IMG/VR virus record: IMGVR_UViG_2579778634_000020
Source of the DNA: a virus
Lineage: Duplodnaviria > Heunggongvirae > Uroviricota > Caudoviricetes
DNA length: 46,724 nt
Reading direction: 5' to 3' (one strand)
Part shown: in pieces, positions 36,190 to 45,172 of the stretch
How positions within the stretch are numbered: the stretch's first letter is position 1
Layout of the letters: every line of letters starts with the position of its first letter
Program-made: the position numbers and the translations under genes
The notes under the pieces: model-generated
The model's database searches: none
Seen by the model: only the letters and a program-made list of their open reading frames with translations
Told to the model about the DNA's origin: nothing

Positions 36190-36936
36190 TTACTTCGCAA
36201 TTCCTGGCTGGACGACATTCGGACGCCAGCTCTCCCAGTTAAAATTCACCCATCGCCCGCCGTTCATGGTCATGCGATCCATAATCCTCTCGCCGAGCAA
36301 TGTTTTCATGGCCTCATAATTCAGGTTTGTCAGCATCCCCACGCTGCGCATCGACGCTGTCCGGCGATCAACAATCTGGTGCAGCACCACCTGCTCGTTT
36401 TTTGTCTCGCGCTGAATGCCAATTTCATCAAGAACCAGCAGATCCACTTGGCACAGTTCCCGCAAAAATTTTTCGCCTGATTGCCCGTCGTCATAGCTGG
36501 CGTGTAGGGCACTCATGACATCAGCCACGGTAACCACAATCACTGTCTGGCCATCTTTCAGCAGGCGATTCCCGATAGCTGCCGCTAAGTGGTTCTTCCC
36601 GGTACCAGGTTTTCCGCTGAACGCAAAATTTGTACACCCGGTCATCAGTTCATCAGCGATGGATTTCGCCTGACTCAACGCGTATCGCTGCCCTTCGTTC
36701 TGCACCTGGTAATTCGAAAACGAGCATTTGCGGTGCAATGGCTGGATGCCAGAGCGATTCAGAATTTTTTCCACCCGCAACTGACGATTCTGACGGTTGA
36801 TCTCCTCACAACGTTTCTGGCCTTCGGAAAGTTGCCACTCGCGCCACTCCGCTACCGTCTTGAATGGCGCGGTTACATGCGACGGGGCCAGTCTGCGGAT
36901 ACGTTCAAGAACGTCGCCTGTCGCAATATTTTTCAT
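36190..36936 (-). CDS. ydaV: DnaC-like helicase loader / replication protein (lambda P functional analogue, IstB-like ATPase)
   Basis: 248 aa; Walker [18 protein letters not shown], Walker B LLVLDEIG. Downstream of the O-like gene. Symbol by synteny with K-12 Rac. Confidence 0.85.
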
Positions 36937-36942
36937 GGTCAG

Positions 36943-37731
36943 TTACCCCCTGAAGCCTGGCGGGATCGCACTATCCGGTAACGAGACGGTGTTAACCTGT
37001 CGGAGTAACGTCTCAGGTCGAACACCTTTCGGCGCGAACAAGCCCTGGTATTCGTTGGCGATGCTGTGTCGAATCACCTGCTCAGGTGAAAAACCCTGCT
37101 GGCGGAATTTTTCCAGCTCCCGTATCGCCCCGTTAGCGCCCTGCTCCGTTCGAATCGGTTTTCGCAATGCCTGCCTGAACTGAACCCACTCATGCCAGAG
37201 TGTTTCCGGCAACCAGTCAGGCAGCTCGATAGCCTCCGGTTCGAATTTTTTAGACGCTCGTTTTTGGCGAGGGGGATTTAGGGGGAGATAAGTATTTATA
37301 TCTTCCTCTTTCTCTTCCTCTGGTAACGCTTTTTGATCCGTTTTTGTAACGCTGGCAGCGTTACCTTTTCGTTTCAGTTCTCGTATTTTTGTTACTCTCT
37401 CGTTTGTAACCGCCCGTTTTTTAGAGCTTTTCCCGTTATGGCGCTCAAAGTTAGGAAGCGACAACACACCATTAGTTTCGACCAGCCATCCAACCTGAAT
37501 TAACGCATCAGCAAAACCAGCCATAAAAGTGATGCGATCTATTGCACTTTTTGTAACGCCGCGAGCGTTACACTCTGCGTTACCGTCTATCATTTGTTGA
37601 TCCGCCCATGCCCAGAAGCGAATGACTTTCCCTAATGCGGCATCTGGATCAATATTCAGAATCTCAGCAAGCCTGAATATTTCCGGCTTATCCGGCGTAA
37701 TAACTTCGAGCTTTATCCAGTTTGAAGCCAT
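36943..37731 (-). CDS. ydaU: Replication initiation protein (O-like, YdaU/DUF1376-like)
   Basis: 262 aa, upstream of the DnaC-like loader. Contains internal palindromic repeats and an acidic/AT-rich stretch. Symbol by synteny. Confidence 0.7.
   Translation of the reverse strand: MASNWIKLEVITPDKPEIFRLAEILNIDPDAALGKVIRFWAWADQQMIDGNAECNARGVTKSAIDRITFMAGFADALIQVGWLVETNGVLSLPNFERHNGKSSKKRAVTNERVTKIRELKRKGNAASVTKTDQKALPEEEKEEDINTYLPLNPPRQKRASKKFEPEAIELPDWLPETLWHEWVQFRQALRKPIRTEQGANGAIRELEKFRQQGFSPEQVIRHSIANEYQGLFAPKGVRPETLLRQVNTVSLPDSAIPPGFRG
37346..37364. promoter_or_regulatory. 19-bp inverted repeat GTAACGC-N5-GCGTTAC, copy 1 (inside the O-like gene)
   Basis: GTAACGC TGGCA GCGTTAC; a GGTAACGC half-site at 37322-37329 sits just upstream. 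Confidence 0.5.
37553..37571. promoter_or_regulatory. 19-bp inverted repeat GTAACGC-N5-GCGTTAC, copy 2 (inside the O-like gene)
   Basis: GTAACGC CGCGA GCGTTAC; a GCGTTACC half-site follows at about 37577-37584. Confidence 0.5.
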
Positions 37732-37808: not shown

Positions 37809-38231
37809 TCAATGCACTACGACAGAATCGCTAGGAGAACCGCCGCCGCTGAAATGTGCTTTACGGTAAACGGCCTGGACTGCATCATCATGCGCATCAA
37901 TTGCCGTACTCAGTGCATCCTGTGCCGCCAGTAATGCACGGCGTTCCAGGGTATCGAAGATGCAGAGTCGGTGACGCAGCTCGCGAGGAAGAATTGCCAG
38001 AACCGCAGGGATCAGTTTCTGAATTTTTTCCCTTTGCGCATTCGTTTCACCTTTCAACCAACGATGATAGATATTCTGCTGATTGTTCCAGTCCTTGCCT
38101 GGTACCAGGGGCAATTCGCCGCCCCCCTGGCGCAGATATTCTTCAGTAATTGCGTTAGCGACCCACGCCTGCCCTTTTTCGGCTGCCAGGGCTAACAACA
38201 CTGATTCGATGTGCTCATGCTTGATTTTCAT
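37809..38231 (-). CDS. ydaT: YdaT-like protein
   Basis: 140-aa ORF translationally coupled to the upstream Cro-like gene, between ydaS-like and the O-like gene as in K-12 Rac. Positional call. Confidence 0.7.
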   Translation of the reverse strand: MKIKHEHIESVLLALAAEKGQAWVANAITEEYLRQGGGELPLVPGKDWNNQQNIYHRWLKGETNAQREKIQKLIPAVLAILPRELRHRLCIFDTLERRALLAAQDALSTAIDAHDDAVQAVYRKAHFSGGGSPSDSVVVH

Positions 38232-38482
38232 GAATCAACTCCCATCAGCTTTTTCGTAGTAGTTTTATTTCTGCCAATAGTTAAAATTGCATCGGCAGAA
38301 AATAATCCGTTTGATGCATGAGCGATTTTTTCAGCGTAATTTGTTTCGCCGGTATATTCTGTGCGAGGCAATTTTCCGTTATCCATCCATTTGTAGATTG
38401 CTCTTTGGCTGACACCACAAACGTCGGCCACAACAGAAACGCGAACAGTTTTGATTACATCTTCAAGTGTTTTCTGGTTCAT
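38228..38482 (-). CDS. ydaS: Cro-like HTH regulator (YdaS-like)
   Basis: ATG at 38482 preceded by RBS GAGGG: MNQKTLEDVIKTVRVSVVADVCGVSQRAIYKWMDNGKLP…, a Cro/XRE-type HTH. Divergent from the racR-like repressor gene. Confidence 0.75.
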   Translation of the reverse strand: MNQKTLEDVIKTVRVSVVADVCGVSQRAIYKWMDNGKLPRTEYTGETNYAEKIAHASNGLFSADAILTIGRNKTTTKKLMGVDS

Positions 38483-38497
38483 ATCACCCTCACAATG

Positions 38498-38571
38498 TGA
38501 ACTTTGAGTACATGCTATAACAGAACTGACAGTACATTCAAGAGCGAATATCATTGAACTTATGGTTCATG
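38498..38571. promoter_or_regulatory. Immunity switch region (OR-like) with direct repeats containing AGTACAT
   Basis: 17-bp direct repeats TGAACTTTGAGTACATG (38498-38514) and TGAACTTATGGTTCATG (38555-38571, overlapping the racR ATG), plus AGTACAT at 38531-38537, 24 bp from the first copy. The racR ATG has no Shine-Dalgarno. Confidence 0.45.
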
Positions 38572-38981
38572 AAGATAAAGCGCGTAAAGAGTTCGCCAGT
38601 AGGCTTGCGCTAGCCTGTGAAAACGCTGGTTATGAACAACATGGAAGGCAGGCAGAAATTGCCCGTCGAATGAAATTAACACCAAAAGCGGTTAGCAAAT
38701 GGTTTAATGGTGAAACAATTCCTCGCCGAGAGAAATTAAGGGAATTAGCAACACTCATTGGAACAACACCAACCTATCTTTTGGGAGAGGATACAGAAGA
38801 AAGTGGACAGATACGTTTCTATCAGGAGTTAAATCCAAGACAAAAAATCATCATTGACCTTCTGGACGAGCTCCCTGACAGTGAGACAGATGAACTTTTA
38901 AAAACTCTTGAGGAGAAAAAACAGAAGTACAATGCAATTTACGAAGAGTTAGCACGAAAGAAAAAACAAAAAGCCTCTTAA
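38562..38981 (+). CDS. racR: Prophage repressor, RacR-like (XRE-family HTH)
   Basis: 139 aa; HTH in …QAEIARRMKLTPKAVSKWFNGETIPRREKLRELATLIG…; charged C-terminus. Divergent from the Cro-like gene, with the early-left operon downstream on the same strand. Confidence 0.8.
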   Translation: MVHEDKARKEFASRLALACENAGYEQHGRQAEIARRMKLTPKAVSKWFNGETIPRREKLRELATLIGTTPTYLLGEDTEESGQIRFYQELNPRQKIIIDLLDELPDSETDELLKTLEEKKQKYNAIYEELARKKKQKAS

Positions 38982-39056
38982 ACCAGCATAAATCCGGTAG
39001 CGTCCCCCTCCGGGTTTGTGCTTCACTTTATCCCGTCTCATTTTTTTATACATAAA

Positions 39057-39100
39057 ATGTACTTAAAGTACTTTACAATGATGAACACAAAGTACATTAT
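39057..39100 (+). promoter_or_regulatory. Candidate PL-like promoter with operator motifs
   Basis: -35 TTTACA (39072-39077), 17-bp spacer, -10 CATTAT (39095-39100). The OR motif recurs as ATGTACT (39057-39063), palindrome AAGTACTT (39066-39073) and AGTACAT (39091-39097, overlapping the -10). Confidence 0.4.
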
Positions 39101-39268
39101 ATACCTACCAACCCACCCCGCCCCACAGAACGCCGGGCAATACTTCGAGTTACCAGGCAGTGGTCAGGGGTTAAGTAGCCAGCCCGAGGCGTATGAACAT
39201 GACGGCGGGATTCAAATTTTGCAGTGCAGCAGTTAGTTCCGCCACCCGGCGTTAAGGGGATAGATAAG

Positions 39269-39403
39269 ATGGTGCATTACGAAGTAGTTCAGTATTTGAT
39301 GGATTGTTGCGGTATCACTTACAACCAGGCTGTGCAGGCTTTACGCAGCAACGACTGGGATCTCTGGCAGGCAGAAGTCGCTATACGTAGCAACAAGATG
39401 TGA
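39269..39403 (+). CDS. ydaG: Small protein YdaG-like (44 aa)
   Basis: ATG at 39269 with RBS AAGGGGA: MVHYEVVQYLMDCCGITYNQAVQALRSNDWDLWQAEVAIRSNKM. Not in the track (<60 aa). Size and position match ydaG of K-12 Rac. Confidence 0.6.
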   Translation: MVHYEVVQYLMDCCGITYNQAVQALRSNDWDLWQAEVAIRSNKM

Positions 39404-39413
39404 GATTCGCAAA

Positions 39414-39569
39414 ATGCAAAAAATCGACCTCGGCAACAACGAATCCCTGGTGTGCGGCGTGTTCCCCAACCAGGATGGAACGTTCACTGCCATGACGTAT
39501 ACCAAAAGCAAAACATTTAAAACCGAAACTGGTGCGCGCCGATGGTTGGAGAAGCACACAGTAAGCTAA
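39414..39569 (+). CDS. ydaF: Small protein YdaF-like (51 aa)
   Basis: ATG at 39414: MQKIDLGNNESLVCGVFPNQDGTFTAMTYTKSKTFKTETGARRWLEKHTVS. Its 3' end overlaps the 3' end of the convergent sieB-like gene. Confidence 0.6.
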   Translation: MQKIDLGNNESLVCGVFPNQDGTFTAMTYTKSKTFKTETGARRWLEKHTVS

Positions 39570-40054
39570 CGATTAAAACGTCTACTCCTGCTGTTCCAGA
39601 ATAACTTCATAAAATGGGAGTATTTTTCGGTGACGAGATAATAAGAACAGTTTGCGCTATCACTCTGATGTTGAATGATGCCCTTCCGTTCTAATTTTTT
39701 CATAACCGGGTTACGGCAAGGAGAAGTGATAATAAGATTTCCTGTTTTAAGGAAATCTTTAAATACAGCGATTTCTTTCTCAGATAAACGAAGCAATACT
39801 CGTTGCTCTGGTAGTAATGAATAATGCTTTTGAATATGTGCTCGCAATCTTGAGAAGGAAATGGCGACCACGAAAGAAAAGGCAAAAACGATAATCTGAA
39901 AGAGCCAAGGTATTTCAGTATAAGCATTGAATGCGACAGTAAACTCTTTCGGTATCAGCCAGAGAGTGAGACCAAAAATGATAATCGTATACATAAGTCT
40001 TTCGAGTGGCTCGTTAGCAAAAAGTTTCAACAATGGAGTAAATACATCCAACAT
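39566..40054 (-). CDS. sieB: Superinfection exclusion protein B-like membrane protein
   Basis: About 162 aa from the ATG at 40054 (MLDVFTPLLKLFANEPLERLMYTIIIFGLTLWLIPKEF…), with two hydrophobic segments. Opposite orientation to the early-left genes, between racR and kilR. Confidence 0.7.
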   Translation of the reverse strand: MLDVFTPLLKLFANEPLERLMYTIIIFGLTLWLIPKEFTVAFNAYTEIPWLFQIIVFAFSFVVAISFSRLRAHIQKHYSLLPEQRVLLRLSEKEIAVFKDFLKTGNLIITSPCRNPVMKKLERKGIIQHQSDSANCSYYLVTEKYSHFMKLFWNSRSRRFNR

Positions 40055-40495
40055 ATCAATAACTCTCAACTGTAAGGGTATTGAAATGTTAACACAAGCT
40101 CTCGCTGTAGGGGTATAGCCGAGACCACCGAAGCCCGGAGGTGGTGAAATAAAACCGGGCACAACACGAAGGCGCATTTCCGATATCCATAAAGAGTCGG
40201 TCTTGTCTGTTAAATTTAAATGGTGGGAGTGCGCCTCCGGTTGTAAATAACGACATTGCTGTGTGTAGTCCTGGCGGCATCAGTTTTTTTCTTGAAGTTC
40301 GGCTGATGTCCGCCCTTTTTAAAGTGAATTTTGTGATGCGGTGAATGCGGCTAAGCGCACGTGGCACAGTTAAAAGTCATGTTAGTCCTTATTGGTTTGG
40401 GTGGGAAAGCCGACTGTAATTGTTAACTGGTTGCAGTCACCTGGAGGCACCAGGCACCGCATCAACAAAGTTCATTTGTAAAAATGGAGATAATT

Positions 40496-40717
40496 ATGAT
40501 TGCACATCACTTCGGAACTGATGAAATACCACGTCAGTGTGTGACTCCTGGCGATTATGTTCTTCATGAAGGCCGGACATATATTGCCTCGGCAAACAAT
40601 ATTAAAAAGCGAAAACTATATATTCGTAACCTGACCACAAAAACATGCATTACTGACCGCATGATTAAAGTCTTCCTCGGTCGTGATGGTTTACCTGTAA
40701 AGGCGGAGTCATGGTGA
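40496..40717 (+). CDS. kilR: KilR, FtsZ-targeting cell division inhibitor
   Basis: ATG at 40496 with RBS GGAG: [73 protein letters not shown], matching Rac KilR (73 aa) as I recall it. Confidence 0.85.
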
Positions 40718-44796: not shown

Positions 44797-44991
44797 ATGA
44801 GATATGACAATGTTAAACCATGTCCATTTTGTGGTTGTCCATCAGTAACGGTGAAAGACATTTCAGGATATTACCGGGCAAAATGCAACGGATGCGAATC
44901 CCGAACTGGCTATGGTGGAAGTGAAAAAGAAGCGCTCGAAAGATGGAATAAACGAACCACTGAAAATATTAATGGAGGCGTTCATGTATAA
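44797..44991 (+). CDS. ralR: RalR (Lar) restriction-alleviation protein / type I TA toxin
   Basis: MRYDNVKPCPFCGCPSVTVKDISGYYRAKCNGCESRTGYGGSEKEALERWNKRTTENINGGVHV, near-identical to Rac RalR as I recall it. An alternative in-frame ATG lies at 44785 (MRKIM…). Confidence 0.85.
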   Translation: MRYDNVKPCPFCGCPSVTVKDISGYYRAKCNGCESRTGYGGSEKEALERWNKRTTENINGGVHV

Positions 44992-45172
44992 AATTACCGC
45001 TACAATTGAAAAGGAAGGTGGCACTCCTACTAACTGGACAAGATATTCAAAATCTAAACTAACGAAATCAGAATGCGAAAAAATGCTCTCAGGTAAAAAA
45101 GAAGCAGGCGTTTCCAGAGAGCAGAAAGTAAAACTGATAAATTTTAATTGCGAGAAACTTCAGTCCTCGTGA
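44984..45172 (+). CDS. ydaC: YdaC-like small protein
   Basis: ATG at 44984 preceded by GGAGG, overlapping the ralR stop: MYKITATIEKEGGTPTNWTRYSKSKLTKSECEKMLSGKKEAGVSREQKVKLINFNCEKLQSS. Symbol by synteny. Confidence 0.6.
   Translation: MYKITATIEKEGGTPTNWTRYSKSKLTKSECEKMLSGKKEAGVSREQKVKLINFNCEKLQSS

Follow-up and report, generated by a model that had tools for sequence, protein, structure and literature searches.

Genes of the locus and domains of the repressor

The locus lies within a stretch of viral DNA of 46,724 nucleotides, the whole of which is referred to here as the window. It is organised around two divergent regulatory genes, a leftward cro-like gene and a rightward repressor gene, separated by an intergenic region of 79 bp (38483-38561, given a cro-like start at ATG 38482). 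The genes and associated elements are as follows:

36190-36936, minus strand: ydaV-like gene
36943-37731, minus strand: gene in the ydaU position
37809-38231, minus strand: ydaT, 94% identical to ydaT of K-12
38221-38238: box for YdaT (a CII analogue), TTGATTTTCATGAATCAA, at the junction of the cro-like stop and the ydaT start
38228-38482, minus strand: cro-like gene, 84 aa, with the same start (ATG 38482) in PGAP
38562-38981, plus strand: repressor gene, 139 aa, with an HK022/933W-type helix-turn-helix N-terminal domain and a short DicA-like C-terminal domain
38985-39022, plus strand: hairpin following the repressor stop

Downstream of the repressor gene, as read in an identical genome, come a ydaG-like gene, ydaF and sieB (minus strand), followed by kilR, recE, recT, ralR, xisR, intR and ttcA. 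The hairpin after the repressor gene is stable (dG -20.5 kcal/mol, z -4.5, none of 200 shuffles equally stable) and is a possible terminator, with a weak U-tract and no call in the terminator scan.

The cro-like protein shares 62% identity with HK022 Cro over 73 aa (E 1e-34) and has no real similarity to K-12 YdaS; its gene is preceded by a good Shine-Dalgarno sequence (GAGGGTGA, 38484-38491, minus strand). The DNA-binding part of the repressor shows a similar relationship. Its first 78 residues are 57% identical to HK022 CI and 51% identical to 933W-type CI, and in tblastn searches of phage records, residues 1-73 matched CI of 933W-type Stx phages at ~51% and residues 4-102 matched HK022 CI at 46%. 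The recognition helix reads TPKAVSKW and is one conservative substitution away from the HK022 helix. Among the residues through which the 933W repressor contacts DNA, namely S41, K42 and K46 (PMC3317979, PMC5977221), both lysines are retained, while S41 is replaced by P41, as in HK022. The gene had earlier been called racR-like, which holds for its position only: similarity to K-12 RacR amounts to 12 identities in 33 residues of the helix-turn-helix stretch (25.8 bits), and the two proteins are associated with different operators. Descent from the RacR/YdaS pair was accordingly rejected as a candidate.

The C-terminal part is of a different kind. Pfam identified HTH_3 alone (residues 29-73) and no S24 peptidase domain, so that the repressor is without the autocleavage domain of lambdoid repressors. 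This domain is typical of, and not universal among, lambdoid repressors; those of Sp4, Sp6, Sp9 and Sp10 are without it (PMC2669165). Residues 30-138 are instead 30% identical over 113 aa to a DicA-type repressor of another Rac prophage, with a score of 56 bits against the NCBIfam DicA subfamily, under its cutoff of 101. The DicA repressor of Qin and the DicA-type repressors of some Rac prophages likewise combine a helix-turn-helix with a helical C-terminus of ~55 aa, but the DNA-binding domain encoded in the window, and hence its operators, are of the HK022/933W type. The same short C-terminus is joined to a related DNA-binding domain in Arsenophonus and Xenorhabdus, although most relatives of the DNA-binding domain occur in the long, cleavable form. 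No solved structure covers the C-terminal domain. Since this DicA-like C-terminus replaces the S24 domain, RecA-stimulated cleavage would not be expected to take part in induction.

Predicted operators on either side of the repressor gene

All motifs listed for this region in the earlier note were recovered where it had placed them. AGTACAT occurs here at 38507, 38531 and 39091, with the opposite orientation, ATGTACT, at 39057; the two 17-mers are found at 38498-38514 (TGAACTTTGAGTACATG) and 38555-38571 (TGAACTTATGGTTCATG), and AAGTACTT at 39066-39073. These strings are better read as parts of five predicted repressor operators, each a 15-bp inverted repeat of the form TGWAC-N5-GTWCA, with three in the divergent region (OR) and two downstream of the repressor gene (OL):

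38498-38512: OR1, TGAACTTTGAGTACA, exact dyad (0 mismatches), spanning the predicted start of the leftward PR-like promoter
38522-38536: OR2, AGAACTGACAGTACA, 1 mismatch (outer position 1), with at its centre CTGACA, the predicted -35 of the PRM-like promoter
38555-38569: OR3, TGAACTTATGGTTCA, exact dyad (0 mismatches), with the repressor start codon at its centre
39058-39072: OL2, TGTACTTAAAGTACT, 1 mismatch (outer position 15), abutting the -35 of the rightward PL-like promoter
39082-39096: OL1, TGAACACAAAGTACA, exact dyad (0 mismatches), in the PL spacer and overlapping the PL -10

The proposal that a motif shared by the two control regions is the repressor's operator is supported by homology to HK022 and 933W, while the half-site is TGWAC/GTWCA instead of AGTACAT. 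Over the whole window, AGTACAT shows no significant enrichment (7 copies against 3.5 expected, with at least 7 in 10 of 100 shuffles). Its copies are clustered, four of the seven falling in ~150 bp, for which arithmetic gives ~4e-9 with regions picked post hoc. We dropped AGTACAT as the motif unit in favour of the 15-bp dyad. The window holds three exact copies of this dyad, every one of them in OR or OL, and when one mismatch is allowed, five of the ten sites found (~4.1 expected across 46.7 kb) belong to these two regions. Each of the 17-bp direct repeats, although present as described, consists of one of these inverted-repeat operators (OR1 or OR3) plus 2 flanking nucleotides. The operator string had no match in the literature searched.

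All five sites retain the eight core positions, with G-(A/T)-A-C as bases 2-5 of either half-site. This is the pattern established for 933W, whose operators are 15-bp and symmetric with critical positions 2-5 G-(A/T)-A-C, and which has three sites in OR and only two in OL (PMC3317979, PMC5977221). The window operators align in register with those of a 933W-type record in which OR1-3 and OL1-2 are annotated, and 933W has its cI ATG inside OR3 as well. The two systems differ at operator position 1 (C in 933W, T in the window) and in the autocleavage domain, which 933W CI carries and the window repressor does not, on a DNA-binding domain that is 51% identical. In HK022, OR3 is identical and OR1, OR2, OL1 and OL2 are near-identical; its sites are also spaced as in the window, at 24 and 33 bp within OR and 24 bp within OL, again with the ATG inside OR3. 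HK022 differs from the window in its CI (235 aa with a cleavable C-terminal domain, against 139 aa with a DicA-like C-terminus) and in its flanks, which hold cII and nun instead of the Rac-type ydaT and ydaG. HK022 and a Kluyvera relative carry an additional site 331 bp upstream of the ATG, which in HK022 lies beyond cro and is the OFR site; it has no counterpart in the window, where no OFR-like extra operator was found beyond cro at up to two core-compatible mismatches.

We next considered whether this layout extends to other species, using an alignment scan of the DNA-binding domain over one genome per species, which gave 38 loci from Enterobacterales, Pasteurellaceae and Pseudomonas. Most Enterobacterales loci, and the single Pseudomonas locus, have core-perfect dyads near -64, -40 and -7 relative to the repressor ATG, OR1 corresponding to the site at -64 or -63 in most relatives and OR2 to that at -40; some relatives have two core-perfect sites only, and two loci (L098 and L100) have a shifted layout. 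The OR2 spacer is kept as TGA(A/C/T)A across relatives, whereas the OR1 and OR3 spacers are not. In about ten loci, the repressor gene is followed by an OL dyad pair with 24-bp spacing. Overall, the geometry is conserved in more than 30 relatives, and together with the homology to HK022 and 933W-type phages it bears out the earlier suggestion of an immunity switch with a lambda-like OR/OL arrangement: a divergent repressor and cro pair, a short region with three dyads over two promoters, and a second operator cluster over a promoter beyond the repressor gene.

Polymorphism within the cassette is consistent with functional half-sites. Across 57 cassette haplotypes, 16 common polymorphisms were found in the 66-bp OL region and none fell in the 20 half-site positions (hypergeometric P = 0.0012); in OL2, which aligns with HK022 OL2 and with the annotated 933W-type OL2, common polymorphisms occur in the spacer only. 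OR1 similarly aligns with HK022 OR1 and the annotated 933W-type OR1. Copies from IMG/VR were used only for polymorphism, because all of them are 99-100% identical at the protein level.

Predicted promoters, the repressor start codon and the proposed regulation

Three predicted promoters are interleaved with these operators:

38514-38541, minus strand: PR-like promoter for cro-ydaT-ydaU-ydaV, with -35 TTGAAT (38541-38536), a 16-nt spacer holding OR2, and -10 TATAGC (38519-38514)
38526-38554, plus strand: PRM-like promoter CTGACA-17-TATCAT, matching 10 of 12 consensus positions, predicted start A38562 or 1 nt earlier
39072-39100, plus strand: PL-like promoter TTTACA-17-CATTAT, matched by the promoter scan and reading into ydaG, ydaF, kilR and recET

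The downstream promoter had been proposed as the counterpart of PL, and this assignment is strengthened by its homology to HK022, with TTTACA-17-CATCAT there and TTTACA-17-CAT(C/T)AT shared. The PR-like site is homologous in position to HK022 TTGACT-16-CATAAT; its -10 is without the conserved final T, and an alternative -10, TAGCAT, lies at 38517-38512 with an 18-nt spacer. Because it falls below the threshold of the promoter scan, PR is a candidate that appears weaker than in relatives. CTGACA-17-TATCAT is the sole plus-strand promoter-like site that the scan returned in OR.

After an in-frame stop, the first possible start of the repressor reading frame is the ATG at 38562, and, in agreement with the earlier note, no GGAG, GAGG or AGGA occurs in the preceding 20 nt. 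The PRM -10 directly adjoins OR3, ending 7 nt short of A38562, so that the predicted transcription start is A38562 or the preceding T, which would make the message leaderless. Several observations across relatives bear on this reading. In 27 of them, the hexamer abutting OR3 matches TATAAT at a mean of 4.5 of 6 positions, against at most 2.9 at any shift of 1 to 6 nt in either direction. The ATG lies at the centre of OR3 (TGAACnnATGGTTCA) in the majority of the relatives examined, which are mainly Enterobacterales and whose proteins start with MV(Q/H); the enteric ones have no Shine-Dalgarno sequence. An ATG within OR3 is likewise seen in HK022, in 933W-type phages and in one Pseudomonas locus. 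With this placement, the right half of OR3 would encode codons 2 and 3, and the MV(Q/H) N-terminus is found only where the ATG is within OR3 (ATG-GTT/GTA-CAx), a restriction that fits dual coding of operator and protein. Relatives from Pasteurellaceae have the same TATAAT and OR3 with the ATG 19-21 nt further on, a leader with an AAGGTGA-type Shine-Dalgarno sequence, and proteins that begin MIT, MIS or MNE. This contrast with the enteric loci is as expected if transcription starts inside OR3 in both groups. The leaderless layout is not universal in the family, since L098 and L100 lack a -10 at the conserved register and carry AGGA 9-13 nt upstream of the ATG.

An ATG inside the third operator with a leaderless repressor mRNA has experimental precedents in the RacR (PMC9638921) and PaaR2 (PMC8630535) systems. 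In K-12, the racR ATG lies in the O3 spacer, and the leaderless transcript comes from the strongest promoter, which is needed for racR expression (PMC9638921); for CP-933P paaR2, the leaderless message was established by 5'-RACE and N-terminal sequencing (PMC8630535). With these precedents and the conserved geometry, a leaderless repressor mRNA, as first proposed for this locus, is the best reading, and for this operator family it is probable.

Alternatively, the repressor mRNA that matters could be leadered, deriving for instance from a YdaT-activated, PRE-like promoter in the cro-like gene, with TATCAT forming no working promoter. One argument for this is the YdaT box at 38221-38238, the sole perfect match to TTGATT-N6-AATCAA in the window. 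This operator was defined for YdaT of CP-933P (PMC9986795), and in K-12 the YdaT-box activates racR from PracR4, a promoter inside ydaS (PMC11879457). By this parallel with K-12, a PRE-like establishment transcript is likely here too, and the box is likely the control site of a PRE-like promoter directed towards the repressor gene. Just one of the three mapped racR starts in K-12 is leaderless (PMC9638921), and OR2 overlaps the proposed PRM -35, both of which could be taken to favour a leadered message. However, a leadered repressor transcript would still be without a Shine-Dalgarno sequence, the position of the -10 abutting OR3 is strongly conserved even in the clade that has a leader, and it is the leaderless promoter on which racR depends in K-12. 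We thus consider it unlikely that a leadered message is the one that matters. The two proposals partly overlap, as both transcripts may exist.

Returning to a leaderless repressor message, motif positions, homology and geometry suggest how the switch would operate. Repressor dimers would bind the TGWAC-N5-GTWCA dyads. Occupancy of OR1, which would cover the PR start, and of OR2, which would fill the PR spacer, would block leftward transcription of the cro-like gene, ydaT, ydaU and ydaV, and occupancy of OL1 and OL2 would block rightward transcription from PL into ydaG, ydaF, kilR and recET. The repressor itself would be transcribed from PRM, with its -10 against OR3 and its -35 at the centre of OR2, and the message would begin with the A of the start codon in the middle of OR3 or with the nucleotide preceding it. 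Filling of OR3 would then cover both the PRM start and the start codon and turn repressor synthesis off. The cro-like protein presumably acts at these operators as well, and YdaT, acting at its box, probably gives a second, establishment-type transcript. We estimate a probability of about 85% that 38239-39105 is an HK022/933W-type immunity cassette, carried by a Rac-family prophage integrated at ttcA, which would work in this way.

Positive autoregulation is uncertain, because OR2, centred near -33 for a start at the ATG, covers the PRM -35, unlike the lambda OR2 at -42. With the PRM -35 flanked by the two half-sites of OR2, repressor and sigma region 4 might share the same 15 bp of OR2 from opposite helix faces, as with lambda CII at PRE. 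Two broader propositions are tentative and, in our view, rather doubtful: that in this operator family the placement of the PRM -35 in the OR2 spacer makes autoregulation unlike that of the textbook switch, and that the non-cleavable, DicA-type version, present in about a fifth of complete E. coli genomes, confers standing, SOS-proof immunity against phages of HK022 immunity.

Cassette exchange among Rac-family prophages

Comparison with K-12 Rac delimits the cassette. The two prophages belong to the same family and share the ttcA attachment site, and their flanks are closely related: beyond ydaT, the PL leader and ydaG/ydaF are near-identical. On the left, K-12 carries the YdaT box with one change, and homology stops just after it; on the right, it resumes at 39106, K-12 strains matching the window only from that position onward. 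The last heterologous position, 39105, precedes the predicted PL start by one or two bases. The intervening segment is thus an exchangeable unit relative to K-12 Rac:

38239-39105: immunity cassette, with its left edge at the YdaT box and its right edge at the PL start

This block of heterology is a classical exchangeable "imm" unit, as judged from the alignment. The comparison shows that Rac-family prophages swap complete immunity cassettes at fixed junctions, with the YdaT box at one end and the PL start at the other. Four cassette types were recognised in the Rac/CP-933P prophage group, namely RacR, HK022-like, DicA/DicC and PaaR2. The conserved PL leader (39107-39268) was considered as a put-like antiterminator RNA; this candidate was dropped, since its fold is not significant (z -1.7) and an Rfam search of 38200-40300 gave no family hit within OR, OL or this leader.

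The logic of the K-12 switch resembles the one proposed here, with three or four operators, the ATG in the last of them, a leaderless transcript (predicted for the window) and, past the repressor gene, a promoter with another two dyads around it. The operators themselves differ: K-12 has TAGGC-N3-GCCTA dyads, four of them in the racR-ydaS interval and another two surrounding the TTGACA-17-TATAGT that follows racR, whereas none was found in OR or OL of the window, which holds 5 matches overall against 12.8 expected. CP-933P likewise has a cI analogue, PaaR2, beside ydaS-ydaT, an OR and a PL region, the YdaT box TTGATT-N6-AATCAA and a leaderless repressor message, but its operator consensus differs (GTTTAGTAA repeats) and PaaR2 heads a toxin-antitoxin operon.

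These differences weigh against a protein homologous to RacR that recognises AGTACAT hexamers or 17-bp direct repeats, a reading to which the gene's racR position in a Rac-family prophage and the presence of both strings lend some colour. The similarity to RacR is confined to 33 helix-turn-helix residues, and its TAGGC-N3-GCCTA sites are absent from the control regions of the window; OR2 and both OL sites fit the dyad and not the 17-mer, and the homologous 933W sites are symmetric 15-mers by experiment (PMC3317979). We therefore regard this reading as highly improbable, and the HK022/933W-type assignment is retained.

The cassette adds a previously uncharacterised example to the well-studied HK022/933W family of switches; it resides in a Rac-type prophage and has a DicA-like, non-cleavable repressor. 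As such, it is an ordinary example of a known switch type and leaves the current understanding of lambdoid switches unchanged. Its interest lies in the assignment of operators, promoters and cassette boundaries for a widespread module: at a coverage of at least 80%, the cassette was detected in 1047 of 5426 complete E. coli genomes (~19%), including O157:H7, at 96-100% identity. Silencing of toxic neighbours, extrapolated from K-12, where racR had been noted as essential for this reason, is plausible here because ydaT and kilR lie downstream of the two promoters, and the module probably silences both. Cross-immunity with HK022-type phages and SOS-independent induction would be predicted.

It is very improbable that the switch has decayed into a non-functional relic within a cryptic prophage, as the weaker PR-like -10 relative to relatives and the defective state of K-12 Rac might suggest, given that all reading frames are intact, the cassette is common in E. 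coli, the half-sites are spared by polymorphism, and a deposited phage genome encodes an identical repressor. A further argument comes from Sakai Sp10, which occupies the Rac attachment site and has a repressor without a peptidase domain: it excises without mitomycin stimulation, transfers to K-12 and can lysogenise it in tandem with Rac (PMC2669165). The O157:H7 copy of the cassette is accompanied by an intact recE and a DnaC-type loader, matching the description of Sp10, and we infer that this copy is Sp10.

Immunity types and repressor architecture

The Rac-type element Escherichia phage Rac (MN652886.1) carries a DicA/DicC immunity pair adjoining ydaT-ydaU, which adds to the RacR, PaaR2, and HK022-like types, so that the Rac/CP-933P prophage group includes at least four interchangeable immunity types. 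Within the operator-specificity family of the window's own repressor, the Arsenophonus and Xenorhabdus proteins (loci L103, L104, and L110-L112; 146–148 aa) combine a 933W/HK022-type DNA-binding domain with a short DicA-like C-terminus. Swapping of the C-terminal domain seems to have taken place repeatedly inside this one family.

Promoters and control sites

In K-12 Rac, two RacR-type dyads (TAGGC-N3-GCCTA) lie downstream of racR, at positions 2952-2964 and 2977-2989 of that locus, and flank a TTGACA-17-TATAGT promoter, an arrangement that constitutes an OL/PL analogue. In the window, the -10 element of the PR-like promoter is TATAGC (within 38512-38519), lacking the final T that is conserved in relatives (CATAAT), and it is improved in a few haplotypes of the cassette, e.g., to TATAGT. 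This lytic promoter may thus be weakened in the present prophage lineage. A candidate control site lies at the end of the cro-like gene:

38221-38238, box for the CII-analogue YdaT, TTGATTTTCATGAATCAA, at the cro-like stop and ydaT start (perfect match)

This box is the sole exact match within the whole window, and the K-12 Rac box differs from it by one change. Its probable role is control of a PRE-like promoter serving the repressor gene.

Leader and small RNAs

A non-coding leader of ~160 nt (39106-39268) lies downstream of PL. Among 5426 complete E. coli genomes, 3718 have a match to it, irrespective of which immunity cassette the genome carries. This leader matched no Rfam family, and its predicted fold was not significant. 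Three small RNA matches were detected further along:

40260-40315, + strand, DicF-like sRNA, matched over its full length, in the sieB-kilR interval (sub-threshold)
40317-40503, STnc100 match adjoining the DicF-like match (sub-threshold)
44990-45168, - strand, RalA antitoxin sRNA adjoining ralR (Rfam RF02694, 218 bits)

At 39.1 bits, the DicF-like match fell short of the gathering score (48); its E-value was 3e-7 for a search space of 400 bp. Both sub-threshold matches lie on the strand of PL transcription. The RalA sRNA beside ralR is typical Rac-family content.
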